Source: Eledone cirrhosa (taxonomy: Eukaryota). Taken from it: DNA of 64,000 nt. The stretch lies in the NCBI GenBank assembly GCA_964016885.1, contig OZ024757.1, forward strand, positions 27,094,001 through 27,158,000. The letters are read 5' to 3'. The notes under the pieces are model-generated. The model made no database searches. It had not been told where the DNA came from and saw nothing but the letters and a program-made list of their open reading frames with translations. A program made the position numbers and the translations under genes. The stretch's first letter is position 1. Each line of letters starts with the position of its first letter. Of this stretch, positions 3,731 through 52,014 are shown in pieces.

Positions 3731-4143
3731 TATCCCGTTACCTATCTCTCCACCATGACCCCCCCCCTCCCCTCTATCATCCACATCCCCTACACCAGTA
3801 CATTCCCCCTCTCTCCATATCCTAACCAGCTATATACATTGTATATATATATTTATATTACCCACCCTACTACCACAAGTATCAAGTACTCTGGTGAGTA
3901 ATGGTCTAACTGGTTTTTACCACCTCCATTCTGATATATATATATTAATATGTATATATATATATACAGTGTGTATATATATATAGAGATATTTATATAA
4001 ATATTGCGATTCTTTGCTTAAACTTTAATCTGTTATTTTAATAAATATTTGCTCTAGGGTTCTTATATATTTGATATATATTTATCCTTATCGAGCCCTC
4101 TTTGGATTTTAGTCTTCACATTTATTATTATTACTATATATAG

Positions 4144-5609: not shown

Positions 5610-5649
<40 letters not shown>

Positions 5650-5652
<3 letters not shown>

Positions 5653-5940
5653 AAGAAAAAGAGATGAAATCGAAAATGCAACTGAAGTCTTATTTTTTTT
5701 AAAAATATATATATTTATTTGGTTCCTTTACCGGTTTCGCAGTTCTTCTGCTTTTTAAAAGGTGAGTTGAGATGGAGGGTCTGTGGTTTTTCTCACATCC
5801 CTCCACAGACCTTCCATCTCAACTCACCTTTTGAAAAGCAGAAAAACTGCGAAACCGGTAAAGGAACCAAATAAATATATATATTTTTTAAAAAAATAAG
5901 ACTTCAGTTGCATTTTCGATTTCATCTCTTTTTCTTTATA
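5650..5940. repeat. Foldback palindrome (arms ~137 bp, loop ~16 nt) of a Penelope-like pLTR fragment
   Basis: Arms are reverse complements with about 3 mismatches; contains a hammerhead-like fold followed by AATAAA; flanked by (TA)n. Confidence 0.85.
5827..5864 (+). ncRNA. Minimal hammerhead ribozyme-like motif (U3-A8 variant)
   Basis: CCUU-UUGAAAA-GCAG(AAAAA)CUGC-GAAA-CCGG-UA-AAGG gives helix I, core, helix II, GAAA, palindromic helix III and a GUA triplet. Confidence 0.55.
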
Positions 5941-5995
5941 CTTTCACTCGTGTAGGACACCTCGGTTAATTTTCATTTTGTAAAAAAAACCTCAC

Positions 5996-6040
<45 letters not shown>

Positions 6041-6047
<7 letters not shown>

Positions 6048-6264
6048 TAAAATAACAGATTAAAGTTTAAGCAAAGAATCGTTGCTTTCACCCTTAACGG
6101 GATCTTCTTCAGAAGATCCCGTTAAGGGTGAAAGCAACGATTCTTTGCTTAAACTTTAATCTGTTATTTTAATAAATATTTGCTCTACGGTTCTTATATA
6201 TTTGATATATATATGTATCCTTATCGAACCCTCTTTGTATTTTAGTCTTCAAATTTATTATTAT

Positions 6265-6316
<52 letters not shown>

Positions 6317-6445
6317 ATAATAATAGATTTGAAGACTAAAATCCAAAGAGGGTTCGATAAGGATAAATGAGTTTCAGAAGATCCCGTTAAGGGTGAAAGC
6401 AGCGATTCTTTACTTAAACTTTAATCTGTTATTTTAATAAATATA
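6041..6445. repeat. Compound palindromes of a TA-associated dispersed repeat
   Basis: Perfect ~68-bp arms around a 2-nt loop at 6109-6110; second inversion 6216-6364 centred on (TA)n; same family at 4006-4140, 16160-16210, 31935-32018 and 34445-34500. Confidence 0.85.
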
Positions 6446-6829
6446 TATATATATCGCTCTGATAGATCGACAAGATCCCAGACCTCATTCGTTTGCCAAT
6501 TGGGGCGGACCTCGTCAAATCAGACCAATATGTGTGTGTGTTATTTTCATTCTAACATCTAAACTGTTAAAGTTTAACCGTAGGGTTAAACTATGCGTGT
6601 ATGTGTGTGTTCCTTGCATTAGTGGTCGTACAAATAAAGACCAATAAAATAGGTACCCGACTTGAAAAATAAGTACTAGGGGTCGTTATGATCGACTAAA
6701 TCCCTTCAAGAGGGTGTCACAGCATGACCGCAGTCTAATGACTGAAACCAATAAAGGAATATATTGAAACGCTCAACTCAAGCATCGCCAAACACGTTTT
6801 TTGCATGCAGAGCTGCAAGCTAGCGTCCC

Positions 6830-6952
6830 TGACATATGCGCATCCGCAATCTAATCTCTATCCGTACGTGCTTCCATAGTAAAGAGGGTACCACCTCCAC
6901 CATTAACACTGCATGGGACGTCACATCCGGTGCGATTTGTAACATCAACACA
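6830..6952 (+). promoter_or_regulatory. Probable proximal promoter / 5'UTR with ETS-CRE composite-like motif
   Basis: acgtcacatccgg at 6918-6930 (reverse complement CCGGATGTGACGT); tgcgca palindrome near 6837; locally CpG-richer than surroundings; just upstream of the ATG. Confidence 0.5.
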
Positions 6953-6998
6953 ATGTCATCACTTGGTCTCTTAACCGGACGGCTAGCCCTGGTCACAG
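6953..6998 (+). CDS. HSD17B8: HSD17B8-like exon 1 (MSSLGLLTGRLALVTG)
   Basis: ATG at 6953; phase-1 donor CAG|gtgaag at 6999. Confidence 0.85.
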
Positions 6999-9900
6999 GT
7001 GAAGTTATATTAACCCTCTTAACATCAATTTATATTGAATTTAGTCGCGTTTTATGTCGTGTAAACACAATCTCATCGAACTAAAATATGTTTTTAGATG
7101 TTCGTAAAGTCTTCGATCTCCCTTTTCATATTTTTGTTTGTTTTCCTTTCTTTTTAACCAGAATTTCAGCGTGGTTCTATGAAGCGTATCGGCCTGTGTT
7201 AAAAAGTTCCCAACCATTTAAATTAATAAAATTCCAACATAATTTGATATAAGCACTTATATGTTACAAATACTATCTTAATATTGAAATAATTAATACA
7301 GTTACTGTAACGAAAAACTTTACGACCTTAATATTTATTTTCGCTTAACATTGGACTTTGATCCGGCTATTTGACATTGCTGTGATAACTGTTTTTACCC
7401 TTTCGTTACCATACTTCTAATGAAAGTCACTGCGTATAATGTTCAAATAATTTTGAAAAATAACCAAGGATTTGGAGGGATTTTTTAAAAAATACTTATA
7501 AATATACATAAAAGAAGCACTAAAAACTGGCATATATTTTATAAGTGTTTGGACTCCTGGTGCTTGATGGTGTCGAAGATGCACTGTCGTGAAATATGGA
7601 CAACTTAAACCTGGCGGAGCCCACCCCTATCTTTGGATCTGAACACAGCTAATTTCTTCCAGAAAAGGACAGAGAATTATATATAGAGAGGAACAATTGA
7701 CTATGGTACTGGACTGGTGTTTTTTTACCGATCTTAACGGATGAAAGGCAAAGTTGACCTCAATGGCATTTCAACTCAGAGATGGCAACGAATAGCGCAA
7801 ATCATTCTATCAGAAGTTCTAACAACCCTACAAATTCGCCTCCTAATTATTTCATTATTAAGATACTAACTTAAAATACGGTTCTTAGTTAAAATAATGT
7901 TGGAAGATTTTGATTTAAAATGAGGGTGTTTTTTTTATCTCGTAGAACCCCTGAGGTGGTTTTGCGAGGGTTGGTATTAAAAAGTATTAACGGACTGGTG
8001 CCCCTTACCTAAGATCTCTTAGATGCAACCTCATGGGAGGCTGATTAAACTGATGCAGGTGTGAGCTATAACAACAAATCGTTAACTATCGCTTTAGTAG
8101 TATGTTGTGTGACTTCACCACAGCAACAATGGGAGACGGTGTTAGTTAAAAATACCACCTAACTCTACCTTTTAAATAATCAATGAGAAAATGGTGATTT
8201 CAAGTCGTGTAATCTTTATAAGTTAGGTCACAGCCTAATCTTTCAACTTAATACCGTGTCTAATCTGCAACAACTTTATATTTCTCCTGCTGTCTTTGAT
8301 AAACACGTTTTTATACTTGTCTTCTTAGTAAAGTAATCTTGGATTTTCTTTAAATTGTTGCTGCTGTTGTTGTCGTAGTAGTGGAAGTGGTCTTCTTCTT
8401 CTTCTTCTTCTTCTTCTCAATGTATTACTCTCACACACGTACACATGTGTATGATATACATCATCATCACTGTTTAACTTCCATTTTTCCACGCTAGCAT
8501 GGGTTAGACGAGTTGTCCTGTTGTGAATCAAGTCAGGTCAGATGACAGTGTCTTGCTGACACAGAACTGTTTCTGGTTTGGTTTCTACAGCTGGATGCCC
8601 TTCCTAACACCAAAAGCATTTACAGTGAGTGCTGGGTGCTTTTTGTTGTGTCACCAATATAACCACTTTACGTATATATATTACAGTTATCATTATAATC
8701 ACGCTCAGAGTTGCTGAAGCATGGAACAAACTACCTGCATCAGTTGTTAGCTGCTGGGACACTGCATCCTTTAAAACCTCCATGATTCCTGAAATTCGCC
8801 AACACTACACCTGATACCCCCCTCCATACACACACTTGTATATCATGACTCATACACTGTTCACTTTCATTTGTACATTATTCTATGTACTATACATGCA
8901 GCTTTGAAGAGTTGTAGTGCAACTGAGCACTGTACACAATAATTTCATTATATTATATTATATTATATTATATATACATACTAGCAGAGGTACCCGGCGT
9001 TGCTTGGGTATTAAATAGCAGTTGTGTATAACATTTATGTCAATACTTCAGTGCTGCTTCGAAAACTATACTTTTACAAAATCATCGGCTTTTTCCAAAA
9101 GGGGGTTCCTGCCCCCAGGGGTCCCCTACTCAATATGTGCCAATTCTGAGAGTTCACATTCATCTGTAGGACAAACGTAGCCTATGTGTCAAGTTTTGTG
9201 AAAATCGGTTGCGAACTCCAGAAGTTATGACGTTTTGTTGCATTGCACTGCAGTTCTTCAGTCGACTCCAAGGAAGTGGTTAAAGGGGGTTATCTGCCAG
9301 GAGGCCCTATAATCAATATCTGGAAAAATTAAAGTGCCCATGACCATCCGGAGTATGTCTTAAGTTTGGTGAAAATATTGTAGAAATGCATAAGGTTTAT
9401 GTGCGTGTGGGTGTGTATGTATTTGTGTGTGCGTATGTATGTGTATGTCCATCGGGGCATATGTATGTACTGGCCTAAATCTTCACTATTTACTTTTACA
9501 ATTTTAATAACCTCTGTCATTTTCGTTTTCAATTTTATTTACATCATTTTTAAACTCCGGGGCTGGAAATCATTCTGTTATTTTAAATAGAGTATTAGTC
9601 TAACGACTCCATTTATACCATAAACTTGGTCTTGTCTTTGCATGAAATTGTTCTTCTCGCTCCACATAACAACGTATTATCCTCGCCTTTTTCCCGTTCA
9701 TTGCCAGGGAACGTCTTCACGAACCAAAATATCGTCTTCCTGTTTTCGTTCGGTTGGAACGTTTCTCAAAATATTTACTTCTGTGTTCACAGATTACTCT
9801 CAGTTCAATTTGAATGGGAAATTCCTGTTTCATCGAATTTCTCCGTAACCATGGAAGCTTGTAGCTTGAAAGTCGACCCAACGCCTCCTCGGGTCATTCT

Positions 9901-12900
9901 GCATAACTGTGTAAATTTTTGCTGCCTTCCACCAAGCCGTTTCGACGTTTATCCGACTACACCTACTTACTTAAATATACAACTTCCAATTTATATAGTA
10001 GATATTATGTTTATTGTATACTAGCAGTGGTACCCGGCGTTACACGGGATAAGGTATTTTGGAATGCGGGCTGCCAACAGACCTAATCGTGGAAAAACTG
10101 CATGCCTAGATGAGCTTATTATATGTTTTCATACACACATATCTAGGGCGGGTAAAATTCTCGAGATCCATGGACGAGTTCTCCCCAGCGGTCTCTGTCC
10201 CTCATCATCGCTGCCATGTCCTGCATCTTCAAGAGACCAGTGTCTGTCCTTAGGGCATCAACATATGTCAACCTCTTGCAGTGTGTCCATGCAGGGGCTC
10301 CCACAGGAGCATTGAGTGTAGTGTCAACTCTGGATGTCGGTGAGCATGTCCAGCTAACCTCAGTCTCCTCTGTGTTACTTTTGAGCTGATTTTTATATAT
10401 ATGTGAGTTAGTGTATTTATATAAATACACACACAATGGACTAAAAGTCAGGAAGAGGTCAAGATGTAATGTGATCTGGCTTGTCTAACCTATGCTTGCT
10501 TGGAAAAATGGATGTTAAATGATGATGATGATATCTATCTATCATCTATCTATCTATGATAATTGTAACTCTCATAACATATATTGCATATGTTTTTAAT
10601 TACATAGTCATTGCCCTTCCTTTTTTAAAGTATGAATATTAACTTGAACATATATATATCCATGCCGAGGTAAACATATATGTTTTGTGCTTGTTTAATT
10701 AACTGCAGTGTTGTTCAATTGTAGTCAGGTTGAATTTTAAATAATTTATGTTCTAATTCAGTGAATTTCAATAAGTTTCTCCACTTACTGAAGCAAGCTG
10801 GCGCCATTTCGCTGTCTAGTCATGACTCTGACTGGCACACAAGCACATACACACACACAAACGCACTCTGTTGTCGGTGCCACAGTTACAGCCACATGAC
10901 AATATTCTACATACACTTAGTGATCCTCTCATCACTACCTTCTGCAAGTAGGGTGAAGTCTGTCTTTCACTGATGAGGTTTAATTAACATGAAACATATC
11001 CTGGGTCGTCTCCCCTACTTGTTGAAATAGTTAAAATGAGTGTATCCCTGTGTCGTAAGAAGCGATTAAAAAGGTTAATGTTAAGAAAAACATTTAGCTG
11101 TAACACATTACTTCAAAAATTCCTATCCAACTCATACCAGCATGGAAAAATTGATCCCAAAATGATGATAATGATGATGATTAAGCTATTTCTATTTGGA
11201 TTTTTTTTGTTCACCACATTAACTATCATCATCATCATTATCAATGTTTTACTTCCATTTCTTCCACGCTAGCGTGGGTTAGACAAGTTGTCCTGTCATG
11301 GGCAATGCTAGGTCAGGTGACTATGCTTTGCTCATACAGAACTGATTTGGGCTTGGTCTCTATGGCTAGATGCCCTTCCTAACACCGACTTCATTTACAG
11401 TGAGTACTGGGTGCTTTTTGTCATGACACCTCCATGACCATTTTACAGTGATTACTGGGTACTTTTTGTCATGACACCTCCATGACCATTTTACAGTGAT
11501 TACTGGGTACTTTTTGTCATGATTCCTCCATGACCATTTTACAGTGTGGACTGGGGGCTTTTTGTCATGACACCTACACAACCACTATTGTTTTTCATGC
11601 AGATGTTGTCACTGAGTAATTAGCATCAGTGATTTATTGTTTTAACTCTTAACATTTTGTAGGAATTCAACAGAAAATGTCTAAAAACATGTTTATTTAT
11701 TCAAATATTTATATCTTTATTAGTGGATAAATTTGTAGTAAGTTAAATCTAAGGAACAAAATTTGTTTTCGCTCTTAACATGGTGGATACTTAGATGTAT
11801 TTGTGAGTGAATGATAATAATAATTGTTTCCTTTTTTGGCACAAGTCCAGCAATTACCCCAGTATTCAGCTGGTACTTTATTTTATCAACCTCGTAAAAA
11901 TGAAAGGCAAAGTTAACCGTGGCGGGATTTGTACTCAGACCGCAAAGGGCCGTAACTCTATGCTGCAAAGTATGGCGTCCGACCATCTACCGATTCTGCC
12001 AATCCACTAAATAATAATTGTTCCTACTATAGGCACAAGGCCAGCAATTTGAAGGGGGCGGGGTAAGTCAATTAAATCGACTCCTGTGCATTACTGGTGC
12101 TTTATTTTATCGGTTAACCTCAGCGGGATTTGGACTCAGACCATAAAGGGCCATAACTTTATGCTGCAAAGCATGGTGTCTGACGCTCCACCGATACTGC
12201 CAATAATAATAATTGTTTCTATTTTTGGCACAAGGCCAGCAATTCACCAGTACATTACTGGTACTTTATTTTATCGACCCCGTAAGGATGAAAGGCAAAG
12301 TTAACCTCGGCGGAATTTGAACTCAGATCATAAAGGGACGTAACTCTATGCTTCAAAGCATGGTGTCCGACTCTCTACCGATACTGCCAATAATACATTG
12401 GCACAAGGGGAAGAGGAAAGTCAACCAAATTGGTTCCAGTTAGTTACTTGTACATTATTTTAGCAACTCTGTAAAGATGAAATGCAAAGCGGGATTTGAA
12501 CTCAGAACAAAACATAATGGTTTCTAATTTAAAGCACAAGGCCTGCAATTTGGGAGATGGAGGAGAAATAGATTATGTTGACCTTAGTGTTCAGCTGGTA
12601 CTTTATTTTATCAACCTAGGAAGGATGAAAGCTAAAGTTAACCTCTGTGGGATTTGAACTCAAGAGGTAAAGAGCTGTAACTAAATAGCACGCGGCATTT
12701 CGTTTGATGCTCTACCAGTTCTGCCAATTCATTACCCTATAGTAATAACAATGATAATAATTTCCTTGGTTTCAGACAATAGTATTTACACCTCACCACC
12801 AAAAACTTCTAGATATAAATACATAACATTCTTTCTTGTAATTCTGTTTTTATATCTTTGCATCTCTCACCCTTGTAGACCAGCGTTCATTGTCTACTGA

Positions 12901-13062
12901 TATATATATATATATATATATGTGTGTATGTGTGTGTGTTTATATATATATATGGTAGCAAATGTGTTTGGAATATATATATATATGTATTATAATATAT
13001 AGTAAGCAAGCTAGCAGGCCAAGCAAAATGGAGAGGGGCTTCTGTTGGTATTTTATCAAATT

Positions 13063-13110
<48 letters not shown>

Positions 13111-14400
13111 TGTACATATATGCACATATGCACGCGTGTTTGTGTGTATGTATGTTGTGTGTGCGTATATATATATATATATATATAAATAATAAAAAAA
13201 GTGAGTGCACTGGAAAAACAAACATTCCCTTCGCCACAGTCAATCTCTGGAGATCACTATAGTTTCAGTTTATTAAGGTTGATACTATTTATTCCAGTGC
13301 ACATTGTGATGCAATAAAACAGATAGACACAGGACAAGTTGTTCCTTTTGGCGAATATATATATAATGGACTCTCCTGTCGATTTGATGTATGCGGGTTC
13401 AACAGTCTTTTCAGTTGTTTTATGTTTATACCTCAAATGGCACTTCAATCCAGCTGCTGATTTACACATGAATCCGTATGTATTTGGTGAGGTGACAGGA
13501 TCTCGAACAGAGCAGGCTGGAATGCCTGACCGGACTTTCGTGTTAGATCTTATCTCACGGAGCTGGGCTAAACAAGATTTCTCAAAGTTCTTTTACCTTT
13601 ATGGCAGACAGGTCTCCAGCTTTTACGGTATATATATATAAATAAACATGATATTAAATTACATTTTTGTATGTGTTATTGAGAATATTACAGGAGTCAC
13701 TTAAATGCCTAGAATTTCGTGCTCAGGCACTTAAAAAGCTAGTAATAGAAAAAACAAAATAGGGTTGTTTATATAGCATATGAATGGGAAGTTAAGAAAA
13801 AATATACGATTAATGTCATTGTGTTTTCAGTACATAAATTTGAAGACTTGTTGATATATAATGTGGATGTGAGATGCAGCATCTATCTGTAAATATATGT
13901 ATCTGATAACAGTATCATTATGAATGTGGTGTATATATTAATATATATATATCATCATGATCATCACCGTTTTACGTCCATTCTTCCATGCTAGCATGGG
14001 TTAGACGGGTTGTCCTGTTGTCGGCAGTGTCTAGTCAGCAGACCATGCCTTGCTCATACAGGAACTGATTTTGGCTTGATTTCTACAGCTGGATGCCCTT
14101 CCTAACACTAACCTCATTTACAGTGATTATATATATATAGAGTATATATATATTACAGTGAGCATATATATATATATATAGTGAAAAATGGAACGGGAAC
14201 AAAACAGAGATATATAAAACAGGGTATATATATATATATATATACCCTTCATAATAGTATCCTTATATATGTGTTGTATATTTATGCACAGTAAGATGGA
14301 CACACACACAGACATATATATATGTATGTATATATGTATGTATATATATATGTATATACGTATATATACATATATATATACATACACACATATATATGTG

Positions 14401-14460
<60 letters not shown>

Positions 14461-16204
14461 CATACACACACACACAATATCTTAGGCATCTCTTTACTGT
14501 TTGCTGACGTGGAAGTCCTTGGCACCTCAGTCTTCATATTTTCCTGAAATGTGTTGCCTTGTTCAACATACTCAGCTGTACAGTTCTACATAAGGAGCTT
14601 TATACAAACACCACCTCACTTTCTTTCTTTCCTCTTTCATACACACACACACACACACTCTCATCCCATACCCCCCCCCCCCCCGGCCACCCCCTCTCCA
14701 TATATACATTGTTTCATGTGACTCGGTGTCATAGTAAACAGGGTGAAATTATGTGCTGGAGGAATTGTGTTTTCCTGTTTGCCAATAATCATAAGATTGA
14801 CGGTTTCTACTTTAGGCACAAGGCCAGCAATTTGAAGGGAAGGGGTAAGTCGATCAATTCCACCCCTGTGTATTACTGGTACTTTATTTTAGCGACCCCG
14901 TAAAGATTAAAAGCAAAGCTAACTTTGGCGGGATTTGAACTCAGAATGTAAAGGGTTGTAACTATATGCCACAAAGCATGTTGTCCAATGCTCTACCGAT
15001 ACTGCTAATCAAAATAAGAATAGTAATAGCAGTAATACTGATTTAGGCACAAGGCCAACAATTTTAGGGGGGGGGGGGAAGACAATTAAATTGATCCCCA
15101 GTGCATTACTGGTACTTTATTTTATCGACTCCGTAAGGATGAAAGGCAAAACTAACCTCAACGAGATTTGAAATCAGAATGTAAAGGACTGTAACTATAT
15201 GCCACAAAGCATGGTGTCTGATGCTCCACCGATTCTGATAGTTAAGGTGGACTGAGATAATGAAGAGTAAAATGTATCACCACAGAGACATTGTGAGGTG
15301 AGATAAATCTCTCATGGGACATGACACTAGTTTATCACAGGTAACATTCTCTAGATGATCTGGGGGTATTTATTGACAGGTTAACTGAGGTAATGTATAA
15401 CAAAGTGTACCTCCACAGAGATTTGGACCCATGATCTAAGACTTTCATTACCATATTTTTAATAATAGACACTGTCTGTGGTTTCTGAATAATAATGAAA
15501 ATAGTAAAAAAATTTGTAAGATTTACTCATGTAACTAACTTTCTCGTGATTAACCCTTTAGCATTTACATTACTCTATATTTACTATTGTATTTTCAGGG
15601 CTTTATCTTACATAATTATCTCGCATAATATCGAATCTATGAGATTTTGATATTATTTGTTTTGAGAATGATACCTTAACATAAGTATGAGCAGCCGGTT
15701 ATTGCTAATTTGAACAGAAAGAGGTGAAAGAATTCTGACCGTCTACAGTCGGTTTAAGTGCTAAAACAGATACCCCCTACACACACAAGACAGACACCCC
15801 ACACACAACAGACACCCCACACACACACAATACTGACACCCCCCTACACACACACTTGTGTGTGTAGGGGGTATCTGTGTTGTGTGTGTGTGGGGTGTCT
15901 GTTGTGTGTAGGGAGGTGTCAGTGTTGTGTGTGTGTGGGGTGTCTGTTGTGTGTAGGGGGGTGTCAGTATTGTGTGTGTGTGGGGTGTCTGTTGTGTGTG
16001 GGGTGTCTGTCTTGTGTGTGTAGGGGGTATCTGTTTTAGCACTTAAACCGACTGGAGACGGTCAGAATTCTTTCACCTCTTTCTGTTCAAATTAGCAATA
16101 ACCGGCTGCTCATACTTATGTTAAGGTATCATTCTCAAAACAAATAATATCAAAATCTCCTTATCGAGCCCTCTTCAGATTTTAGTCTTCACATTTATTA
16201 TTAC

Positions 16205-16235
<31 letters not shown>

Positions 16236-19200
16236 ATACATACATATATATGTATGTGTATATATATTTTTTTGATTGATTTTTTGCAGTAACTCAAATA
16301 TCAATCTCCTACTTAAACAAAGTATGTGTATCTTAGCAACTGATCTCCAACAAAAGACTTAATTGATGTGTGAGAGAGAGAGAGAGAGTGAAAGTTTTAT
16401 TGACAGAGAAAGTTGAGCTGATTGATTGAGGTGCTAAAAGTACCTGCAACCTTTTTTACTCTAGACCACCTAAAACTGACTCCCCCCCACCCCACCCCAG
16501 CCTTCCAGGTTCTATGACACAACTGTTTAAAGTGTTCATGTTTATTAGATAAACACTATCTGACACCTATACTATAGTAAGGGCACTGAAAATTGGAATA
16601 TTATCATAGATTCAGTACAACACTCATCTGTTGTGTGTAGGGGGGTGTCTGTGTTGTGTGTGTGTGGGGTGTCTCTTGTCTGTAGGGGGGGGTGTCTGTG
16701 TTGTGTGTAGGGGGTGTCTGTTGTGTGTAGGGGGGTGTCTGTGTTGTGTGTGTGTGGGGTGTCTCTTGTCTGTAGGGGGGGTGTCTGTGTTGTGTGTAGG
16801 GGGGTGTCAGTGTTGTGTGTGTGTGGGGTGTCTGTTGTGTGTAGGGGGGTGTCAGTATTGTGTGTGTGTGGGGTGTCTGTCTTGTGTGTGTAGGGGGTAT
16901 CTGTGTTGTGTGTGTGTGGGGTGTCTGTTGTGTGTAGGGAGGTGTCAGTGTTGTGTGTGTGTGGGGTGTCTGTTGTGTGTAGGGGGGTGTCAGTATTGTG
17001 TGTGTGTGGGGGGTGTCTGTCTTGTGTGTGTAGGGGGTGTCTGTGTTGTGTGTGTGGGGGGGTGTCTGTTGTGTGTAGGGGGGTGTCAGTGTTGTGTGTG
17101 TGTGTGGGGTGTCTGTTGTGTGTAGGGAGGTGTCAGTGTTGTGTGTGTGTGTGGGGTGTCTGTGTTGTGTGTGTGTGGGTTATCTGTGTTGTGTGTGTTG
17201 TGTGTGTGGGTTATCTGTGTTGTGTGTGTGGGGGGTGTCTGTGTTGTGTGTATGTGTGTAGGGGGTGTCTGTGTTGTGTGTGTAGGGGGTGTATGTGTGT
17301 GTGTGGGGGGGGGATCGGTGTTGTGTGTGTGTGTAAACAGTTATGCATGCTCAGCCATAAACAACAAGAACAAACATCACTACAACCACCACCAACAACC
17401 ACACCACCACCATCACTACCACCAACACTGCTACCACCCCTAGCACCATCACTACCATCAACAAAGTCACCATCAACAATAACCACACCACTACCATCAC
17501 ACCACCACCACTACCATCAACACAGTCACCATCAACAACAACCACACCACTACCACCACCACTACCAACACCATCACTACCACCACCACCACCACCACTA
17601 CCATCAACACAGTCACCATCAACAACAACCACACCACCACCACTACCACCACCACTACCATCACCATCACTACCACCCCTACCACCTACAACAATAACAA
17701 TAGTTGGCTGTGAGCTATGTAGGACACATTTAGTTGTAATGTTATTGGCTTTGAAAAGCAGCTTAAACCAGCCGGATCTGGTTTACAGAAGAAATATTGT
17801 GTTATATATTCTTATATCACGATGAGATAATATATTTATTGGGGTTATCTCTCAAAACAGGAAGGAGAAAGGGGAGGGATTAACCCCTGTTAAGAGCTGC
17901 AGTGATGTCTTTTAGTCCAAGAGAGAAGGGCTGTGCTCATGGCTCTTTTCAGGGCATCTGAAAGTCATGGGAGGGTGGAATCTATCTTTATTTAAACTGG
18001 AGATCTGATTCTCAAATGCTTGCAACAGAGTATGGTAAAGACCCCCTTCAGTCATGAAAGACCATGGGATTTGTACCTAGAAAGTTCCCCTCTGAGGCAC
18101 AAGTCCAGGCAAGGTTGTTTGTGGAAGATCAGCTGTTGCCCATGCATACCGGCCTCTCCTCTTCACGCCACCGGTGTTGACCATTCGAAAGGCACTGACC
18201 CATACAGCTTGGCACCAGTGACATAAAATGTCTTGCTCAAGAATACAATGCACTATGTCCAAGAATCGAACTCACAACCTCCTGATTGCAAACCCAATGC
18301 TCTAACACTAAGCCATGCTCCTTCACACAGCAGTCTCTGCTAAGGCCATCAAAAGTTCAGGTGTATTTATCAGAGATGTTTCACTTGATAAGTTGTAGGG
18401 TGATGGAAGTGATTAGAGTGAATTTACACCTTGCACATGAATGTACAACAGAAGTTGGCAATAGGTGTTCACTGTGTGCCTCAGACCTTTTAAAATGTTT
18501 ATATGTAAGATATGATATAATATACATATGGGCTATTGTGGTATTCTCGGTGGGCCTCTGACCTTTTAACCCTTTAGAATTTACATTACTCTATATATAC
18601 TATTATATTTTCACAATAAAGGCTTTATCTTACATAATTATCTCACAAAATGAATAACATTAAAATCTACGAAATTTTGATGTTATTTGTTTTGAGAACA
18701 ATACCTTAATGTAGGTATGAGCAGCCAGTTACAGCCGCTTTGAACAGAAAGAGGTGAGAGAGTTCTGGTCAGATATGGCTGGTTTAAATGCTAAAGGGTT
18801 AAATTGTTTATATGTAAGATATAATAAAATAGACATATGGGCCATTGATGTGTTTTCTGTGGCCTTCTTAAATTGCTTATATGTAAGATACAATATAAAA
18901 TACATAGGCTTCAGACCTTTTCAAATGCATATGACAAAATATACATGTTGGCCATTGATGTGTTCTCACAACAAGAAATGATACTGCTGAAGTAGATCCA
19001 ACCTGGAGATGACACCCCTCCTTGTGGCTCTCTTCCCAGAGCTGAGAGTGCTCTACTGTTGGGTCTATGACCAACAACCTCTCTAGTGATGGTGCCATGA
19101 AAATGCACCCGCTAGACTCTGTAAGGGTGTTTGGTGACAGGAAGAGCACCCCATTGTAGAAACCATGCCTGAAAGGGTTGAGAGGACCCTTTAGTTGTGT

Positions 19201-22200
19201 CAACCTTACAACATCTTTACTTCACAACACCATCTCACATCTTAATACCACAATATCTCAGAACCATCAACCTCACAACTGTTGATATCTAATCTTTATC
19301 TTGCTACTCAGGTGCTGCAAGTGGTATTGGTCGCAGCATATGCCAGGTGTTTGCACGTGAAGGGGCCAAGATTGCAGCTGTCGATATCAATATGGTAGGA
19401 CTAGAGCAGACCCTGAAAACATTGAAGGCTTCTTCTCCAGGTATTTATTGTTGGTGAAACCTTCAACATCATCATCATTGTTATGGCTGTCGTAGTCATC
19501 ACCACCACCATCATCATTATCATCATTACCATCATTATCACCAACACCACCTTCATTATCACCACCATCAACACCACCACCACCACCACCATCATCACCA
19601 CCACCCTCGTCACCATCACCTCCACCACCACCACCATCATCACTACCACCCTCATCACCACCACCCTCGTCACCATCACCTCCACCATCATCACCATCAC
19701 CCCCACCACCACCACCATCATCACTACCACCCTCATCACCACCATCACCCTCTTCACTGTTATCATCACCGTTTAACGTCTATTTTCCACCCTTGTATGG
19801 GTTAGATGAATTATCACATACAGAGGCTGGACTGGTGAGGTATCTACAATTTCACATCCATTTTCTATACTAGCATGGGTTGGACAGGTCACTGTTAACT
19901 GAGCCAGTTCATATTTAGAGTTAACTGCCCTGCTAGATGGGTTACAGGTCCAGATCTGATTGGTTTGTTCCAGTTATGGCATAGTTTCTACAGCTGGAGA
20001 GATCCTGTGATGGAGTAGACTCATCTAACCCATGGGAAAATGGTCGTAAAAATGATGATAATTATGTAATATCACCGATACTATGTGATATTGTTGATAA
20101 ATATCAAAAACAAAATTTGTTTTCCCTCTAACATGGTGGATACCTAAATGTATTTGTGAGGGAATAATAATTGTTTCTACTTTTGGCACAAGGCCAGCAA
20201 TTAACCATTGTATTACTGGTACTTTATTTTATCAACCCTGTAAGGATGAAAGGCAAAGTTAACCTCGGCGGGATTTGAACTGAGACCATAAAGGGCCGTA
20301 ACTCTTTGCTGCAAAGCATGGCGTCCGACCCTCTTAATAATATTATTGTGAACGAGACCTGGGCATTACTGTCAACAGCGATTCGCGTTGGACGAAGCAC
20401 ATCTTTAAAATTGTCAAGAAGGCCAAGAGTGTCTTAGCATCACTCAGCAAGACCTTTGTCAGCCGCTCTCCAGCTATCTATTTAAACGTGTACATAGCTA
20501 TGGTGCGGCCACACTTTGAATTTGCATCACCAGTCTGGAACCCCTATCTTGCTCAGAACATTGACCTCAGGCATCTACCATACTCTGAACACCTTGCTTC
20601 TCTGAGCATGGATACATTGAAGCGCTGATGTCTGGCAACTGACTTGGTAAACACCCACAAAATGATTATCTTGCCAACAACAACCCTGAGCATCTTTTTG
20701 ATTTCCATGTCTCTAACACACGTGGACATGCCTACAAAGTCAGAAAACAGCACAGCTCCCATGACTTTCGGAAACATTATTTCACGCTCAGAGTTGCTGA
20801 AGTATGGAACAAACTACCTGCATCTGTTGTTAGCTGCCGAGACACTGCATCCTTTAAAACCTCCATGCTTCCTGAGATTCGCCAACACTACACCTAATGT
20901 CCCCCTTCCATACACATGCACACATGTATATATCATGACTCATACACTATTCACTTCCCTGACATTTGTATATTACCCTATGTACTATACATGCACCCTT
21001 GAGGAGTTGTAGTGCACCTGAGCACTGTACACAATAATTTCATTATTATTATTAATATTTGGTTTATTTGCAAGCAGACAGCCTCATAAACACCATGTGT
21101 GTTTTCTAGATGACAATGTCATCCTTTTGTTCTAGCGGTAACTGAGAGAAAACAGTTGACAATTGTTTCGGAGTTGTTGCTCCTTATCAAGACTGTATTT
21201 TTATTGTTGCTACCTGCTGGAACTGCTGAGAATACATACTATTCTCAAATGTATACATTGGTTGATTAGCCTAATTTGCATACTGAGCGATTTTACTGCC
21301 AGCTTATAATTACATCATCAGATATCTTTTTGCCTATACAGGTAAAATTCTGTTATAACGAATACTTCAGAAAAACAAAATTTTTTTCAATCACTGAGGT
21401 AATAACAACGAAATGCTCGATGTGTTTCAGTTGATCTCGTTATAAAGAATTTTTCGTTTCAATGAATTTTTTTTCATACGCCATGAATTTCGTTATTGTG
21501 GAATTTCACTGTATATAATTCTACTTGTAGGGGACCACCATGCATTCCCAACTGATATCTCCCTGCCTAAGTCAGTGACACAGATGGTGGAGCATGTGAC
21601 CACACAGTTCCAACAAACACCATCCATAGCTGTTAACAGTGCTGGCATTATCCGCGACAATCTCCTTCTACGCACTACTGATGAAGAATTTGATAAAGTC
21701 ATTAATGTCAACTTAAAGGTTTGTTTCTTGGTATCTTCTGTGGTTATTGTGGAAGTAGAGTTTATGTTATTGTGGAAGTAGAGTTTGTGTTATTGTGGAA
21801 ATAGAAGTTGTGTTATTGTGGAAGTAGAGTTTGTGTTATTGTGGAAATAGAGTTTGTGTTATTTTAGAAATAGAGTTTGTGTTATTGTGGAAGTAGAGTT
21901 TGTGTTATTTTGGAAGTAGAGTTTATGTTATTGTGGAAATAGGGTTTGTGTTATTGTGGAAGCAGAGTTTGTGTTATTGTGGAAGTAGAGTTTGTGTTAT
22001 TGTGGAAGTAGAGTTTGTGTTATTGTGGAAGTAGAGTTTGTGTTATTTTGGAAGTAGAGTTTGTGTTATTGTGGAAGTAGAGTTTGTGTTATTGTGGAAG
22101 TAGAGGTTGTGTTATTGTGGAAATAGAGTTTGTGTTATTGTGGAAGTAGAGTTTGTGTTATTGTGGAAGTAGAGTTTGTGTTATTGTGGAAGTAGAGTTT

Positions 22201-25200
22201 GTGTTATTGTGGAAGCAGAGTTTGTGTTATTGTGGAAGTAGAGGTTGTGTTATTGTGGAAATAGAGTTTGTGTTATTGTGGAAGTAGAGTTTGTGTTATT
22301 GTGGAAGTAGAGGTTGTGTTATTGTGGAAGCAGAGTTTGTGTTATTGTGGAAGTAGAGGTTGTGTTATTGTGGAAATAGAGTTTGTGTTATTGTGGAAGT
22401 AGAGTTTGTGTTATTGTGGAAATAGAGTTTGTGTTATTGTGGAAGTAGAGGTTGTGTTATTTTGGAAGTAGAGTTTGTGTTATTGTGGAAGTAGAGTTTG
22501 TGTTATTGTGGAAGTAGAGTTTATGTTATTGTGGAAGTAGAGTTTGTGTTATTGTGGAAATAGAGTTTGTGTTATTGTGGAAGTAGAGTTTGTGTTATTG
22601 TGGAAGTAGAGTTTATGTTATTGTGGAAGTAGCGGTTGTGTTATTGTGGAAGTATAGTTTGTGTTATTGTGGAAATAGAGTTTGTGTTATTGTGGAAGTA
22701 GAGTTTGTGTTATTGTGGAAGTAGAGTTTGTGTTATTGTGGAAGTAGAGTTTATGTTATTGTGGAAGTAGAGTATGTGTTATTGTGGAAGTAGAGTTTGT
22801 GTTATTGTGGAAGTAGAGTTTGTGTTATTGTGGAAGTAGAGTTTATGTTATTGTGGAAGTAGAGTTTATGTTATTGTGGAAGTAGAGTTTGTGTTATTGT
22901 GGAAATAGAGTTTGTGTTATTGTGGAAGTAGAGTTTGTGTTATTGTGGAAGTAGAGTTTATGTTATTGTGGAAGTAGCGGTTGTGTTATTGTGGAAGTAG
23001 AGTTTGTGTTATTGTGGAAATAGAGTTTGTGTTATTGTGGAAGTAGAGTTTGTGTTATTGTGGAAGTAGAGGTTGTGTTATTGTGGAAGTAGAGTTTGTG
23101 TTATTGTGGAAATAGGGTTTGTGTTATTGTGGAAGTAGAGTTTGTGTTATTGTGGAAGTAGAGTTTATGTTATTGTGGAAGTAGAGTTTGTGTTATTGTG
23201 GAAGTAGAGTTTGTGTTATTGTGGAAGTAGAGTTTGTGTTATTGTGGAAATAGGGTTTGTGTTATTGTGGAAGTAGAGTTTGTGTTATTGTGGAAGTAGG
23301 GTTTATGTTATTGTGGAAGTAGAGTTTGTGTTATTGTGGAAATAGAGTTTGTGTTATTGTGGAAATAGGGTGGCTTATTGTGGAAACTGTATGTGATATT
23401 GAGAAAGTAGAGAGTGTTATTGTAAAAGTACTGAGGAGTAACAACTGTTGTGATAGAGCATAATGTAGTGATGTGGTGTTTGGTCTCATAGTAGTGAGTG
23501 GTGTAGTGTGTGGTAGATAGTAGTGAGTGGTGTAGTGTTTGGTCTATAGTAGTGTGTGGTCTTGTAGTAGTGAGTGGTGTAGTGTAGTGTTTGGTCTATA
23601 GTAGTGTGTGGTATATAGTTGTGAGTGGTGTAGTGTTTGGTCTATAGTAGTGTGTGGTCTCATAGTAGTGAGTAGTGTAGTGTTTGGTCTATAGTAGTGT
23701 GTCGTCTCGTAGTAGTGTGTGGTATATAGTAGTGAGTGGTGTAGTGTTTCGTCTATCGTAGTGTGTGGTCTTGTAGTAGTGAGTGGTCTCATAGTAGTGA
23801 GTGATGTGGTGGAAGTAGTAAGTCCCACCATGTCTTATGCAGAAGTAGTGTATGATGAAGCTTCTATTGCTGGTGTATTTATTGCCTAGAATTCCTGTCA
23901 ACTTTTTATAGATGTTTTATATGTAGAAACCTGATGAGATTGGAAGATTTTTACTGTAGTTGTGATTTAAAAACTATGATATTATTGTATCTGTTGACAG
24001 GGTACATATCTCGTAATGAAGGCTGTGGCTACACTAATGATAAATAAGCAGATTGAGTGTGGGTCCATCATCAATCTTGCAAGTATTGTTGGAAAGGTAA
24101 GGAAAATAGTAGGATTGATCTCCACTTTATCCACTGGCTGGATACAGCTGGTTTAAAGGCTAAAGAGTTAACCTTGTGGGTGCTATAGCAATCTTCATAT
24201 TCATTTGTGGGGTCCTTCTTGAGGCAATCAATGTTCCATGGCAGAATGTCCTTTTTGATGCTTAACCCTTTCAGTTGCTTCTTTAGACCAGGAATATGGT
24301 CTACCTATTCTAGAAACTGGGGTGACAGCAATTATAGCTTCAATATTGGTCAGACAATTAAAATTTGATATGCAGTAATGTTTTAATAATTTAGTATTAT
24401 TAGTGGTTGAAGGTGTGTGGCCTTGTAGTTAGAGTATTGGACTCACAATCATACTGTTGTAGATTCAATTCTTCGACTGAGTGGTGTGTTGTGTTCTCGA
24501 GCAAACACTTTATTTCATGTTGCTTTTCATGATAGAGTGAATCCCTTCCTTTCATTAAAACACCCCCAAAAACTTCCTATGAGTTGTAACATTGTTTTTT
24601 GTTTGTTTTACATTATTTGTAGTATTAGTAAAATTGTTATATATTTTGTATGTGACTGTAGTGTGGCAACATCGGACAGTGCAATTATGCAGCATCAAAA
24701 GCTGGAGTTGAAGGATTAAGTAAATCTGCTGCAAAAGAACTTTCCAGGTAAATTCTGTTCCTATATCTCAACATAACTTCCCAGGTAAATTCTGTTCCTA
24801 TATCTCAACATAACTTCCCAGGTAAATTCTGTTCCTATATCTCACCATAACTTTCCAGGTAAATTCTGTTCCTATATCTCAACATAACTTTCCAGGTAAA
24901 TTCTGTTCCTATATCCCAACATAACTTTCCAGGTAAATTCTGTTCCTATATCTCACCATAACTTTCCAGGTAAATTCTGTTCCTATATCTCACCATAACT
25001 TCCCAGGTAAATTCTGTTCCTATATCTCACCATAACTTTCCAGGTAAATTCTGTTCCTATATCTCACCATAACTTCCCAGGTAAATTCTGTTCCTATATC
25101 TCAACATAACTTTCCAGATAAATTCTGTTCCTATATCTCACCATAACTTTCCAGGTAAATTCTGTTCCTATATCTCAACATAACTTCCCAGGTAAATTCT

Positions 25201-27307
25201 GTTCCTATATCTCAACATAACTTTCCAGGTAAATTCTGTTCCTATATCTCAACATAACTTTCCAGGTAAATTCTGTTCCTATATCTCAACATAACTTTCC
25301 AGGTAAATTCTGTTCCTATATCTCAACATAACTTCCCAGGTAAATTCTGTTCCTATATCTCAACATAACTTTCCAGGTAAATTCTGTTCCTATATCTCAA
25401 CATAACTTTCCAGGTAAATTCTGTTCCTATATCTCAACATAACTTTCCAGGTAAATTCTGTTCCTATATCTCAACATAACTTCCCAGGTAAATTCTGTTC
25501 CTATATCTCAACATAACTTTCCAGATAAATTCTGTTCCTATATCCCAACATAACTTCCCAGGTAAATTCTGTTCCTATATCTCAACATAACTTTCCAGGT
25601 AAATTCTGTTCCTATATCTCAACATAACTTTCCAGATAAATTCTGTTCCTATATCTCAACATAACTTTCCAGGTAAATTCTGTTCCTATATCTCACCATA
25701 ACTTTCCAGGTAAATTCTGTTCCTATATCCCAACATAACTTTCCAGGTAAATTCTGTTCCTATATCTCACCATAACTTTCCAGGTAAATTCTGTTCCTAT
25801 ATCTCAACATAACTTCCCAGGTAAATTCTGTTCCTATATCTCAACATAACTTTCCAGGTAAATTCTGTTCCTATATCTCACCATAACTTTCCAGGTAAAT
25901 TCTGTTCCTATATCTCAACATAACTTTCCAGGTAAATTCTGTTCCTATATCTCAACATAACTTTCCAGGTAAATTCTGTTCCTATATCCCAACATAACTT
26001 TCCAGGTAAATTCTGTTCCTATATCTCAACATAACTTTCCAGGTAAATTCTGTTCCTATATCTCACCATAACTTTCCAGGTAAATTCTGTTCCTATATCT
26101 CAACATAACTTTCCAGGTAAATTCTGTTCCTATATCTCAACATAACTTTCCAGGTAAATTCTGTTCCTATATCTCAACATAACTTTCCAGGTAAATTCTG
26201 TTCCTATATCCCATGACTTTCAGAAACATTTTTTCACACTTAGAGTTGCTGAAGCATGGAACAAGCTACCAATATCGGTTTTTAGCTGTTTGGACACTGC
26301 ATTCATCAAAACTTCCATGCTTCCTGAAATAAGACAACACTACACCTGATATTTCCCCTCCATAAACACTCACGCATGTATCTGTGTGTATATCATGACT
26401 CATACATTTTATATGCTATACATGCACCTTTGATGAGTTGTAGTGCACTTGAGCACTGTACACACTAATTTTCATTATTATTATTATATCTCAATATAAA
26501 GGCAGTGGATTGGCAGTATCTGCAGAGGATCGGACGATGTGTTTTGCAGCATAGAGTTATGGCCCTTTATGATCTGAATTCAAATTGCGTCGAGGTTAAC
26601 TTTGCCTTTCATCCTTACGGGGTCGATAAAATAAAGTACCAGTAATGCACTGAGATAATTGCTGGCCTTGTGCCAAAAGTAGAAACAATTATATCTCAAT
26701 ATAAGGCGGTGGATTGACAGAATCGGTAGAGCGTCAGACACCCTGCTTCTTGGCATAGAGTCACGGCCCTTTACATTCTGAGTTCGAATCCCGCCAAGGT
26801 TAGCTTTGCCTTTCATCCTTACGGGGTCGATGAAATAAAGTAGCAGTAATGCACTGGGGTCGATATAATCGACTTTCCCCTTCCCCCAAATTACTGGCCT
26901 TGTGCCTATAGTAGAAATAATTGTTATATCTCAATATAAATTTTAGGTAAATTTTGTTTCCATATTTTAACCTTTTAATACTGGAAGAGGAAATAAAGAA
27001 AGGCGATGTACAAGACAAGTTTTTACTCATCGCTGTATTTGACAGCGTTGAGCTGTTTTAACGGCTATAATAGCGATGAAATTTCTCATTTTTTATGTAA
27101 TATGACATGTAGTTAATGTTGAATTTAATTACTGTCATGTTTGTTACAGGTTCAATATCCGTGTCAACTCCGTCTTGCCAGGATTTATTGCTACACCCAT
27201 GACAGGTACAGTTCCAGAGACATTTCTACAGAATCTCGTCAAACAAATTCCACTACGACGACTTGGAACTCCTGAAGGTTTGTGATAGTTATTCTGTACA
27301 TATATGC

Positions 27308-31858: not shown

Positions 31859-32034
31859 GTATGTATGTATTTATATATATATATCTGTATGTATTTATAT
31901 ATACCTATATATCTGTATGTATTTATATATATCTCTAGGATTCTTATATATTTGATATATATTTATCCTTATCGAGCCCTCTTTGGATTTTAGTCTTCAC
32001 ACTTATTATTATTACTATATATATATCAGTATAT

Positions 32035-33072
32035 CTAGGGCTGGTAAAATTCCCGAGATCGATGGACAAGTTCTCTCCAGCGGTCTCTGTCCCTCATTAT
32101 TGCTGCCATGTCCTGCGTCTCCAACAGACCAGTGTCTGTCCTTAGGGCATCAACATACTTCCTCTTCCAGTGTGTCCATGTAGGGGCTCCACAGGAGCAC
32201 TGAGTGCAATGTCAACTCTGGATGTCGGTGAGCATATCCAGCTAACCTCAGTCTCCTCTGTGTCACTTTTGAGCTGACTTTTGGGAGGCTCCCATACAGC
32301 TCTGAGTTTTTCATCTTTAGTGTATACTGATTAATGTTAAGAGCCATCCTCAGCATTCTCGTGTAGCACCCATCCACCATCTGAGAGAGTTTCTTGGTCA
32401 GTGTCCAAGTCTCAGACCCGTACAGCAGCACAGACTCCACTTCAGCAATGAAGAGGCGGATTTTCAGGTCTTTACGAAGGTCCGAGTTCCACACCGATCT
32501 CAAGCTGTGGCATGCCACCCAGGCTTTGCTCTTCCTCTCAACCACATCATCTTCCATATTCCCAATCTTTGCTCCCAAATACAGGAAGTCCTCAACCAAT
32601 TCTAGCAGCTTCCCACCTACATTAGTAATCCCCTCTGGCTTCTCAACATTCTCTACCAGATATTTTGTTTTAGTCTCATTCATTCTCAGCCCCACACTCA
32701 TCGACACAGTCTCAACCTCCTGCATCAAATCCTTCACTGATTCTGTGGACCGTCACTGCCTAATGAAGATCTTACAGGCTTATGGAATCCTCAAGAAGAT
32801 AGTGGACCTGATATCACTGCTCTACACCAACACCAAAGCACAAGTCATTACACCTAATGGGATGACAGAGTTCTTTGAGATACTGGGTGGAGTGCTCCAG
32901 GGAGATACATTGGCTCCCTACCTTTTTATCATCGTAGTGGACTATTGTATGCGCCTTGCACTGGAGAAACACCAGGACTCTGGCTTTACTGTAGCACCGG
33001 CTCAGAGCAGGAGAGTTAAGGTGAAAAAGATATTGGATGCTGAATTTGCCGACGACATAGTTTTGGTGACAA
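32035..33072 (-). mobile_element. 5'-truncated, 5'-inverted RTE LINE insertion with 16-bp TSD
   Basis: Minus-strand RT C-terminus at 32035-32737 (VGLRMNETKTK..FLYLG..LLYGSETW); plus-strand RT core at 32738-33072 (GVLQGDTLAPYLF..FADDIVL); TSD atatatatcagtatat at 32019-32034 and 33073-33088. Confidence 0.9.
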
Positions 33073-34215: not shown

Positions 34216-35035
34216 ACAGAGGACAGGAAATAACAAGGCCTCAAAATAAAGAAACTGGGTTATTTCTCAGACTACAAACTTCAATTTTTAATCAATGGAA
34301 TGAAAATCAGAAAGAATACTCATTATAAAACAGGGTTAAAATATTGTATTTCTAATTGTTATATTCTATAGTGCCATATTATGATGATGTGTGTATATAT
34401 CTCTATATATACACACATATCATCATAATATATATATATATAGAAATAATAAATGTGAAGACTAAAATCCGAAGAGGGCTTGATGAGGATTATATATCAA
34501 AATATATGAATATATCTATATTCATGAATATGTTTATATATGTCTATATATCCACCTTTTTCTCCTTATGACCAAAATTGAGAACTGATGTAGCCATCCA
34601 TCTATATATACAGAACACAACAAAGATGAATATAAATATCAGTTTAATTAACCCTGACCCTCCCCCCCCAAAAAAAAAGACATCTCACCCATTCGTCTTC
34701 CAGTGTCTTTAATGGAAATCGAATGGCATATATATATATATGCAGGTAAGAATACTTTATTATGTCATTACATCCTTCCTCAGACAGGCTGCTGACATCC
34801 GAAGACACCTGAGGTCTGTGCAGTAACCGTGTGGAGAGGAAGTGGCCAGACAAAATCCAGTATTTGTGACTGAAGAGACTAAGTTGGAGGTGAATAACAT
34901 ATCACAATGTGGTGTCCCAGATGAATGATTTAAGATAAAATTAGAAAAAAATGTGTTTTTAATTCCATTTTTAAATATCTTTTGTCGTTTCCAACCTCCT
35001 AGACATTCTTGTTTGAGTCACTCTCTTAAACGCAC

Positions 35036-36392: not shown

Positions 36393-36465
36393 TATATATA
36401 TATATATATATGTATGTCAGGTCGCTTTTCAGCGCTACTGGTAACACATGCATGTAACCCAGTAC

Positions 36466-39400: not shown

Positions 39401-40748
39401 TCTTTAGTACTTTGGTCCTATTCCACCCAGTTACTCAGAGATATTTCATGAGATTGTAGGCAGATATTTATACCAACCTTTGACCTGCAATCCTACTTTT
39501 TAAAGAACTCTCTCTCAGTACGCCTGTCCTTCTCGTAATCATAGCTGAAGTATTGATCAGTATTAATATCGATTAACTTTTCACCACGTGAGTTCAATTC
39601 TCAATCATTAGGTGAGAGAGTGACGTCTTGGGTGCCATTTATCATAAGCACCAGTTAACCCATGTCCTGTGGGTGAAATTTGGTGAACTGGAACTGTCTG
39701 GAAGCTTGTGAGTTTTAATTTAAAGAGTCAGTCTTGTCACACTCCGTGCCAAACTTCAGTTTTTCTTCCCATAGTGGTGACAGTGTTGGACTTACGTTCA
39801 TAATGTGATGAGTTCAATTCCTGGATCGTGTTGTGTTTTGAGCAATACATTTCATTTCACGTGGCTCCAGTATACTTAGCTGAACATGAGTACCAGCAGT
39901 ATCTTAGGGGAGAGGGTAACCCTGCCATAGAATGGCGTCCTACTCATGGGAAGTCTCGTATTTTCAGTTGATTAACGCCAAGCAGACTAATAGACACCGG
40001 CTTAATGACAACCATCCTGCTCCGTAAGGGTAGACCCCTCGGTTAGGATGTCAAACGTTGGGACGTCTGCCCCTCATGTGATTGAGTGTTTGGGGCCGGA
40101 GACTTCCGATGTTCTTGGCCCCACGCACGGCTATCGGAGCGGAGTTAACTACCCACAAATGTGGTGCAGTAGTTGTTTCAGTAAGTCTCCCTAGCTCTGG
40201 AACCAGGAGACAGACTGACCCTGAAGTTTCATTTATGGTGGGGGCATGTAGAATATATTTACTTAAGCACTATTGTTATATTATTAAAAAATGAAAAACC
40301 TGTGTTTGTTTTTTATTCACAAAATTAATGTTGAAATTAAACAATAAAATGTAGGGATTTATTAATAAAATTCAACATGCTTCCTTTTTATTCACAGAAA
40401 ACATAGTTTTCCCTGCAACAGCTCTGTTGTCTTTAACAAATCTTTCAAGATTGAGATGAAAGACCGTAAATTGTTGATTCAATTCTTCAGCAGTGTTAAA
40501 TATTTTCTGACACTAATCACCATTTAACATTGTTAGTTAGTCGGCGATTGTCTTGTGGCCTTAAACCCCCAAAGTATGTGGAGGTTCTCTGGTTTGTCGC
40601 GAGCCCAGAAGCTTATCTCGTAAAATGACAGAGTACAAGACTCCAATGCAGGGTTAAAGCCTGTCTCAAGCCAGGAGACTCATTAAGCTTATCCTGGTTT
40701 CGTCCCTTAAAGTGACAGAGTACAAGATGCCAGTCCATCACAAGGTTA
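36466..40748 (+). repeat. Left arm of a large inverted duplication
   Basis: 36466-37050, 37500-38170 and 39195-40748 are reverse complements of 51350-51941, 50530-51300 and 48724-50335; ORFs 40082+ and 49165- are nearly identical. Confidence 0.92.
37615..37830. repeat. 30-bp degenerate tandem repeat (also 37216-37380, 50870-51190, 53875-54260)
   Basis: Unit ~ccaggccatgctgcagcacaatctaaaaag. Confidence 0.85.
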
Positions 40749-51700: not shown

Positions 51701-51941
51701 TTATACCAGAAAGAGCCTCTCCTAGAGAGATGTCTTAATGAAGACTAGGAGTCTCTAGATCCACAAAAAAACCCCCCAAAAAACAACAACACTAATGGAT
51801 GGTCGTTTACTCTTCTAAGTTACTCTGCTCTTTGACGGGTTTTGTTTTCCATATAGCAAGGTGTCCAAAATCAACCTCCTCCCGAAGCAAGCTTGGTGGG
51901 GCTGCCCGTTTAATCGCCGACAACCTGATCATGCACAGGTT
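48724..51941 (-). repeat. Right arm (copy A) of the large inverted duplication
   Basis: Reverse complement of the left arm with scattered substitutions and indels. Confidence 0.92.
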
Positions 51942-52014
51942 ATAGTCCAACACTGTCACATTAAAAAGTAGGATTCCACGTCAAAGAACTCACCCCACAT
52001 GCTGGAGTGAGAGG

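Follow-up and report, generated by a model that had tools for sequence, protein, structure and literature searches.

A 64-kb stretch of genomic DNA from Eledone cirrhosa (64,000 nt of contig OZ024757.1, hereafter the window) carries two hammerhead ribozyme motifs, site 1 and site 2, in which the Watson-Crick pair between core positions 3 and 8 is present, by sequence, as U3-A8. We hold with moderate confidence that both motifs were left by two Penelope-related families whose source elements carried U3-A8, and that both of the present copies are inert. The U3-A8 pair was likely inherited from the source elements and does not seem to reflect decay of the individual copies. More broadly, we infer an origin from Penelope elements or retrozymes, a U3-A8 majority in the source family of site 2, a dimer mechanism and cleavage in the source elements. 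An earlier sequence-only reading of this DNA had described two unrelated minimal hammerheads with a compensatory core change and had implied that the change was new. The swap is already published: Perreault et al. (2011; PMC3088659) describe several natural hammerheads whose C3 and G8 have covaried, giving U3 and A8, and cite earlier in vitro activity of U3-A8 cores; Cervera and De la Pena (2014; PMC4209133) report about 1,300 U3-A8 motifs in Penelope elements of Schistosoma, found after their own descriptor was seen to miss them.

Anatomy of the two motifs

5827..5864, + strand: site 1, minimal type I hammerhead motif (descriptor and sequence anatomy)
21152..21196, - strand: site 2, type I hammerhead motif (sequence anatomy and descriptor)
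21129..21223, - strand: outer extension of site 2 helix I beyond an internal loop (21223-21209 with 21142-21129; folding, z -3.05)

Both sites pass a three-helix hammerhead test (core positions 3-9, G12-A13-A14, A15.1-U16.1 and H17), with helix III formed by the palindrome only. Site 1 has a 4-bp helix I (CCUU 5827-5830 with AAGG 5861-5864), the core UUGAAAA (5831-5837, where U3 is 5831 and A8 is 5836), a G-C-closed 4-bp helix II (GCAG/CUGC) with a 5-nt loop, then GAAA and the palindromic helix III, CCGG. U16.1 and A17 lie at 5859-5860, and the predicted cut is after A17 (5860). At site 2 the core is UUGAUAA (21190-21184; U3 at 21190, A8 at 21185), and all core positions apart from the 3-8 swap are kept. 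Helix I has 6 bp and is preceded by UAC; helix II (GGAG/CUCC) has 4 bp and a 6-nt loop that starts with CAA and ends in A; GAAA and the palindromic helix III, CAAUUG, follow. U16.1 and C17 occupy 21159-21158, the predicted cut is after C17 (21158), and U1.7 at 21151 is unpaired. The two folds and their UUGANAA cores are therefore where the sequence-only reading had put them, as is the C-A mismatch beside the core in helix I of site 2, which is its first pair (2.1/1.1).

The earlier description of both motifs as minimal holds for site 1 but not for site 2, which by its sequence has the periphery of a canonical animal type I hammerhead, defined by a 6-bp helix I, a 4-bp helix II and a palindromic helix III (PMC4209133). 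With the canonical metazoan form (Schistosoma type, Rfam Hammerhead_HH9 RF02275 and the non-LTR (long terminal repeat) retrozymes; PMC7229834) site 2 shares UAC with the 6-bp helix I, the 4-bp helix II, the 6-nt CAA...A loop II, the unpaired U1.7, the outer helix I and the palindromic helix III. It differs from that form in its U3-A8 core, in a U4C subset within its family and in lacking an Rfam match. A contact of U1.7 with the A that ends loop II has been described for full-length hammerheads (PMC11875169), and the presence of both nucleotides suggests that a tertiary contact between loop II and helix I may also form at site 2. The canonical periphery (6-bp helix I and tertiary-contact elements) is absent at site 1, which shows every feature of the minimal hammerheads of Penelope-like elements (PLEs), namely a short helix I, G10.1-C11.1 and a short palindromic helix III. 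Site 2 shares G10.1-C11.1 and the palindrome but has a long helix I. The enlarged helix II of PLE minimal hammerheads is absent at both.

The closest published counterparts are the U3-A8 hammerheads of the S. mansoni Cercyon PLE, which likewise have type I topology and a palindromic helix III; two rows of Fig. S3 of that study start with UUGAUAA and UUGAAAA, the cores of sites 2 and 1, respectively (PMC4209133). Like site 1, the Cercyon motifs have a short helix I; most of them are single dispersed copies and some form opposite-strand pairs, which is also in keeping with the present sites (PMC4209133). In contrast, the sites described here have a 4-bp helix II and longer palindromes, no Penelope open reading frame (ORF) was seen near them, and they come from another host group. 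Among the titles listed for octopus ribozymes, none deals with such motifs.

Chance expectation and searches for relatives

A strict descriptor that left positions 3 and 8 free matched exactly twice in the window, at sites 1 and 2, and not once in 800 shuffled versions (400 global and 400 local dinucleotide shuffles). With a relaxed descriptor three sites were found, one of which is a twin of site 1 in inverted orientation; shuffles averaged 0.045 sites (one site in 9 of 200 shuffles, two in none). Both descriptors were composed after the sites had been seen, so these figures somewhat flatter the excess over chance. Descriptor scans of the window detected no canonical C3-G8 hammerhead of full anatomy, and the strict descriptor detected no full-anatomy core with a single change at the 3-8 pair.

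Might site 1 have nothing to do with hammerheads and be an AT-rich palindrome that folds this way by chance? Its helices of only 4 bp, a folding z-score of -1.0, the missing Rfam match and the lack of a family sample would fit such an origin. However, the shuffled sequences produced no such site under the strict descriptor, its core heptamer has been published for a Schistosoma Cercyon element (PMC4209133), and the inverted arrangement around it (see below) fits PLE insertions (bioRxiv 2021.04.23.441226). We regard a chance fold as very improbable.

The sequence-only reading took the two motifs to be unrelated. Local BLAST indeed found no similarity between the two loci, but their helices II are one swapped pair apart, so remote kinship is possible. 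Its expectation that standard searches miss both motifs was borne out: Rfam has no match to either, yet it recovers a C3-G8 look-alike, a metagenome locus used as control (L019, 273-344, - strand), which matches HH9 at E=2e-7, below the gathering score. This control, a canonical type I hammerhead, agrees with site 2 in its periphery, and it shares the UAC, 6-bp helix I and 6-nt loop II with HH9. For the window as a whole, no hammerhead was present among 150 of 168 Rfam rows. Telomere-type CTAACC repeats stand at the edge of the control sequence, some 250 nt away from its motif, and the locus is possibly a telomere-associated PLE.

The helix II pattern common to both sites also served to look for relatives. 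It gave 117 loci from 30 of 64 parts of the metagenome contigs and another 27 from viral contigs. The full folds among the 105 distinct matches comprised seven C3-G8 and one C3-A8 cores, with no U3-A8 and no U3-G8.

The repeat family of site 2

21062..21305, no strand assigned: fragment of the multi-copy family bearing site 2 (contigs and reads placed at at least 80% likeness)

Four public runs (X1, X2, X5 and X6, from three samples with two organism labels) were placed on 21062-21338 at at least 80% likeness. The yield was 824, 872 and 444 contigs and 374 reads, and coverage runs from 21062 to about 21305. Common family sequence continues past both ends of the site 2 copy, and 21062..21305 is a fragment of a multi-copy family. 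Non-LTR retrozymes are expected to form tandem repeats of about 300 bp; the repeat unit here exceeds the 277 bases covered, so tandem joints could not appear.

Several variants in the family preserve or restore the fold. Position 1.1 is G in shares of 0.58, 0.59, 0.53 and 0.74 (X1, X2, X5 and X6, here and below), restoring C2.1-G1.1; because 1.1 is mostly G, the C-A mismatch of the site 2 copy is likely CpG decay and a minority state. At the helix I pair 21193/21155, G is replaced by A at 0.44, 0.43, 0.34 and 0.54 and C by U at 0.54, 0.49, 0.56 and 0.43, as would be expected from a G-C to A-U swap. Two outer-helix mismatches of the site 2 copy are repaired in the family, at 21141 (0.57-0.82) and 21133 (0.56-0.69). 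Among the best 40 of 136 variant rows, loop II varies and helix II does not.

The same best 40 of 136 rows hold neither C3 nor G8. Taken in its best run, none of these rows has a share under 0.28; C3 and G8 are therefore each expected to lie below about that value. The consensus strings of loose ends over the core, whose agreement is 0.63-0.66 and whose register was set by eye, keep U3 and A8 in 3 of 3 cases (18, 15 and 15 records). Most copies of the family thus seem to carry U3-A8. The sequence-only reading had proposed covariation rather than decay; the part that stands is that U3-A8 looks inherited, both here and in the two arms at site 1. Covariation in the strict sense would mean phased lineages with C3-G8 and with U3-A8 within one family, and the unphased pattern here is not of that kind.

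A further core change, U4C (21189), is present at 0.29, 0.30, 0.43 and 0.28 (26, 26 and 19 contigs; 11 of 40 reads). The variant core reads UCGAUAA, and the loose-end consensus of X1 is U3-C4-G5-A6-U7-A8-A9. Since C4-G5 is a CpG, some U4 copies, perhaps including site 2 itself, may be decay products of a C4 master. Both changes have counterparts among the core variants of Perreault et al. (2011), with U3-A8 as at both sites and U4C, known alone from a viroid, as in the site 2 family (PMC3088659). The joint U3-C4-A8 core was not found in the literature searched, whose reach did not extend to Lunse 2017, Przybilski and Hammann 2007 or the Perreault alignments. A stronger proposal, that the family is a high-copy animal retroelement with a canonical, tertiary-stabilised type I hammerhead that stays active with U3-A8 plus U4C, a class overlooked by CUGANGA and Rfam searches, is unlikely.

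The inverted repeat around site 1

5649-5786 and 5803-5940, no strand assigned: arms of an inverted repeat around site 1 (138 bp, 4 differences)
5725..5762 (within 5718-5767), - strand: inverted twin of site 1 (core at 5758, UUAAAAA)

Site 1 belongs to an inverted repeat (5649..5940) that adjoins (CA)n/(TA)n microsatellites. It occupies the right arm; the left one contains a twin that the sequence-only reading had not reported. The twin keeps U3 and A8 and carries G5A in the core, on account of which it is predicted to be dead. The arms differ at 4 of 138 positions and both keep U3 and A8; the pair therefore predates the duplication. Penelope-like insertions typically come with an inverted, 5'-truncated copy alongside a pseudo-LTR (bioRxiv 2021.04.23.441226), an arrangement that 5649..5940 seems to resemble, and opposite-strand hammerhead pairs 100-700 bp apart have been reported in Schistosoma (PMC4209133).

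These data bear on whether the two sites are decayed C3-G8 hammerheads, which would have acquired two A+T-ward transitions in a parent copy while canonical masters persist elsewhere in the genome. Both changes are indeed transitions (C to U and G to A) in an AT-rich, decaying repeat landscape, the twin shows further core decay (G5A), and the evidence from the families consists of 40 visible variant rows out of 136 for site 2 and no sample for site 1. However, the same double change is found at two dissimilar loci while none of the full-anatomy cores that the strict descriptor finds in the window has a single change, U3-A8 is common to both arms at site 1, and C3 and G8 are absent from the best 40 of 136 rows and from all three consensus strings of the site 2 family. 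Decay of canonical parents is accordingly judged quite improbable, and inheritance of U3-A8 from the source elements is preferred.

Proposed mechanism and state of the copies

How might such motifs have functioned in their source elements? In the source RNA, U3-A8 would take the place of the C3-G8 Watson-Crick pair of the active core, and the palindromic helix III would pair two neighboring copies (predicted duplexes of -8.3 and -6.4 kcal/mol). Cleavage after N17 by the resulting double hammerhead would free the element RNA from a longer transcript. A dimer model of this kind exists for hammerheads with a short palindromic helix III (PMC6765202), and PLE minimal hammerheads are reported to have low activity and to require multimers or a longer helix III for it (PMC4209133). 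Site 1 would represent the minimal form and site 2 the canonical one, in which the contact between loop II and helix I would help to tolerate core changes. For site 1, cofolding of two copies through the palindrome gives -22.5 versus -15.0 kcal/mol, with formation of an intermolecular helix III. One PLE hammerhead needs a protein, and a 3-8 swap rescues it partly (PMC11167929). The carrier of site 2 may be either a Penelope pseudo-LTR or a non-LTR retrozyme; retrozymes have been described (PMC7229834), and a 2026 preprint derives the non-LTR retrozymes from Penelope pseudo-LTR carriers.

The sequence-only reading suggested that the two copies may be active, which the folding and sequence data do not favor. 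In the minimum-energy fold of isolated site 1, U3 is predicted to pair with A17, the analogue of an inhibitory C3-G17 pair (PMC3884650), and in read-through RNA the site is part of a long hairpin in which a hammerhead-compatible fold has a computed probability of about 2e-43. Owing to the predicted U3-A17 pairing and the burial in the 138-bp hairpin, this copy is likely inert. At site 2 the pair next to the cut site is lost and the core is predicted to mispair, so activity of this copy is unsupported, and it too is likely inert.

Active use of one or both copies by the host, for example in cutting intronic or antisense dehydrogenase RNA, is therefore hardly credible. Site 2 does keep its whole core bar the 3-8 swap and sits beside an exon, and intronic canonical type I hammerheads exist (HH9). 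Yet its orientation is opposite to that of the gene, the pair adjoining its cut site is lost, and local BLAST detects no second copy in the window that could act as its partner; site 1, for its part, is predicted to be buried on read-through.

It is also conceivable that U3-A8 is the family state but that the ribozymes were dead or negligible already in the source elements and spread passively. The poor in vitro cleavage of PLE minimal hammerheads (PMC4209133), the presence of U4C at 0.28-0.43 in the site 2 family and the ability of U3 at site 1 to pair with A17 fit this view, as does the finding that hammerhead mutants left insertion by purified PLE protein unchanged (PMC11167929). On the other hand, variants in the site 2 family that keep helix I and its outer extension paired suggest that the fold was selected, Perreault et al. 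(2011; PMC3088659) state that in vitro activity of U3-A8 cores has been shown, and traps of the G17 type are tolerated by tertiary-stabilised hammerheads (PMC3884650). Passive spread is thus unlikely, although it retains some weight, and Penelope-related sources with U3-A8 hammerheads that cleaved are preferred.

A number of observations weigh against this preferred account. Neither site matches any hammerhead model of Rfam clan CL00010 at E up to 10. No remnant of a Penelope reverse transcriptase or GIY-YIG domain was found near either site by motif scan or by comparison of 5 ORFs with Pfam, the scan giving only scattered, chance-like matches, so the Penelope-related element class is putative. 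An extra nucleotide between A9 and 10.1, present in most PLE minimal hammerheads, is absent at both sites, although a few published ones also lack it (PMC4209133). The 105 distinct pattern matches in public contigs include no U3-A8 relative, and the read and contig placement covered the site 2 family only. For the site 2 family, the data on U3-A8 are support and not proof, because the shares are weighted by depth, carry no phase and lean toward the reference; X1 and X2 are moreover one sample, and the 40 variant rows of 136 are the best-supported ones under a ranking that is itself inferred. ViennaRNA folding, a type of calculation that leaves out tertiary energy, gives low probabilities for a free core: 0.02 for site 1, 0.0003 for site 2, and 0.007 for site 2 with the family base at 1.1. 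Lastly, a PLE hammerhead was dispensable for insertion in vitro (PMC11167929), so spread is no proof of cleavage.

Genomic setting

21531..21719, + strand: internal exon of a short-chain dehydrogenase gene (Pfam adh_short)

The window is AT-rich, repeat-rich animal DNA with microsatellites, fragments of long interspersed nuclear elements and a spliced short-chain dehydrogenase gene on the + strand, further exons of which lie at about 24690 and about 27170 (Pfam adh_short). Its repeats are suggestive of a cephalopod genome. Site 2 is about 330 nt upstream of exon 21531..21719, antisense to the gene and likely within one of its introns. Between site 2 and this exon, 21339-21511 is a short element with imperfect terminal inverted repeats, which may be akin to a Tigger-type miniature inverted-repeat transposable element. 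The dehydrogenase introns hold tandem arrays of 23 bp and 37 bp (about 21740-23500 and 24700-26300).

Elsewhere, 36463-40665 and 48828-53980 form a long inverted duplication in pieces (identity 80-98%), and 15641-16159 is an inverted repeat that is perfect over 212 bp, with arms 95 nt apart. An abundant repeat at 6040-6444 occurs in palindromic arrangements, with partial copies at 4007-4142, 16158-16251, 31911-32037 and 34394-34510. Its start (6110-6160 and 6376-6425, + strand) has a hammerhead-like layout with the core CAGAAGA, a long helix III and a helix II closed by a U-U pair; both copies fail the relaxed descriptor and were not counted as a third hammerhead. On its other strand, this repeat contains a 10-mer that also occurs in the site 2 family at its U4C core; this may be a coincidence.

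Implications

The 3-8 pair and its natural U-A swap were established before, and the present data settle no open question; a new core combination, if there is one, would be the U4C subset within the family of site 2. What they add is two further families of U3-A8 hammerheads, one of them canonical rather than minimal, both of which Rfam misses. Since Rfam and CUGANGA descriptors miss such motifs, counts of hammerheads in animals that were obtained with CUGANGA descriptors are likely underestimates.

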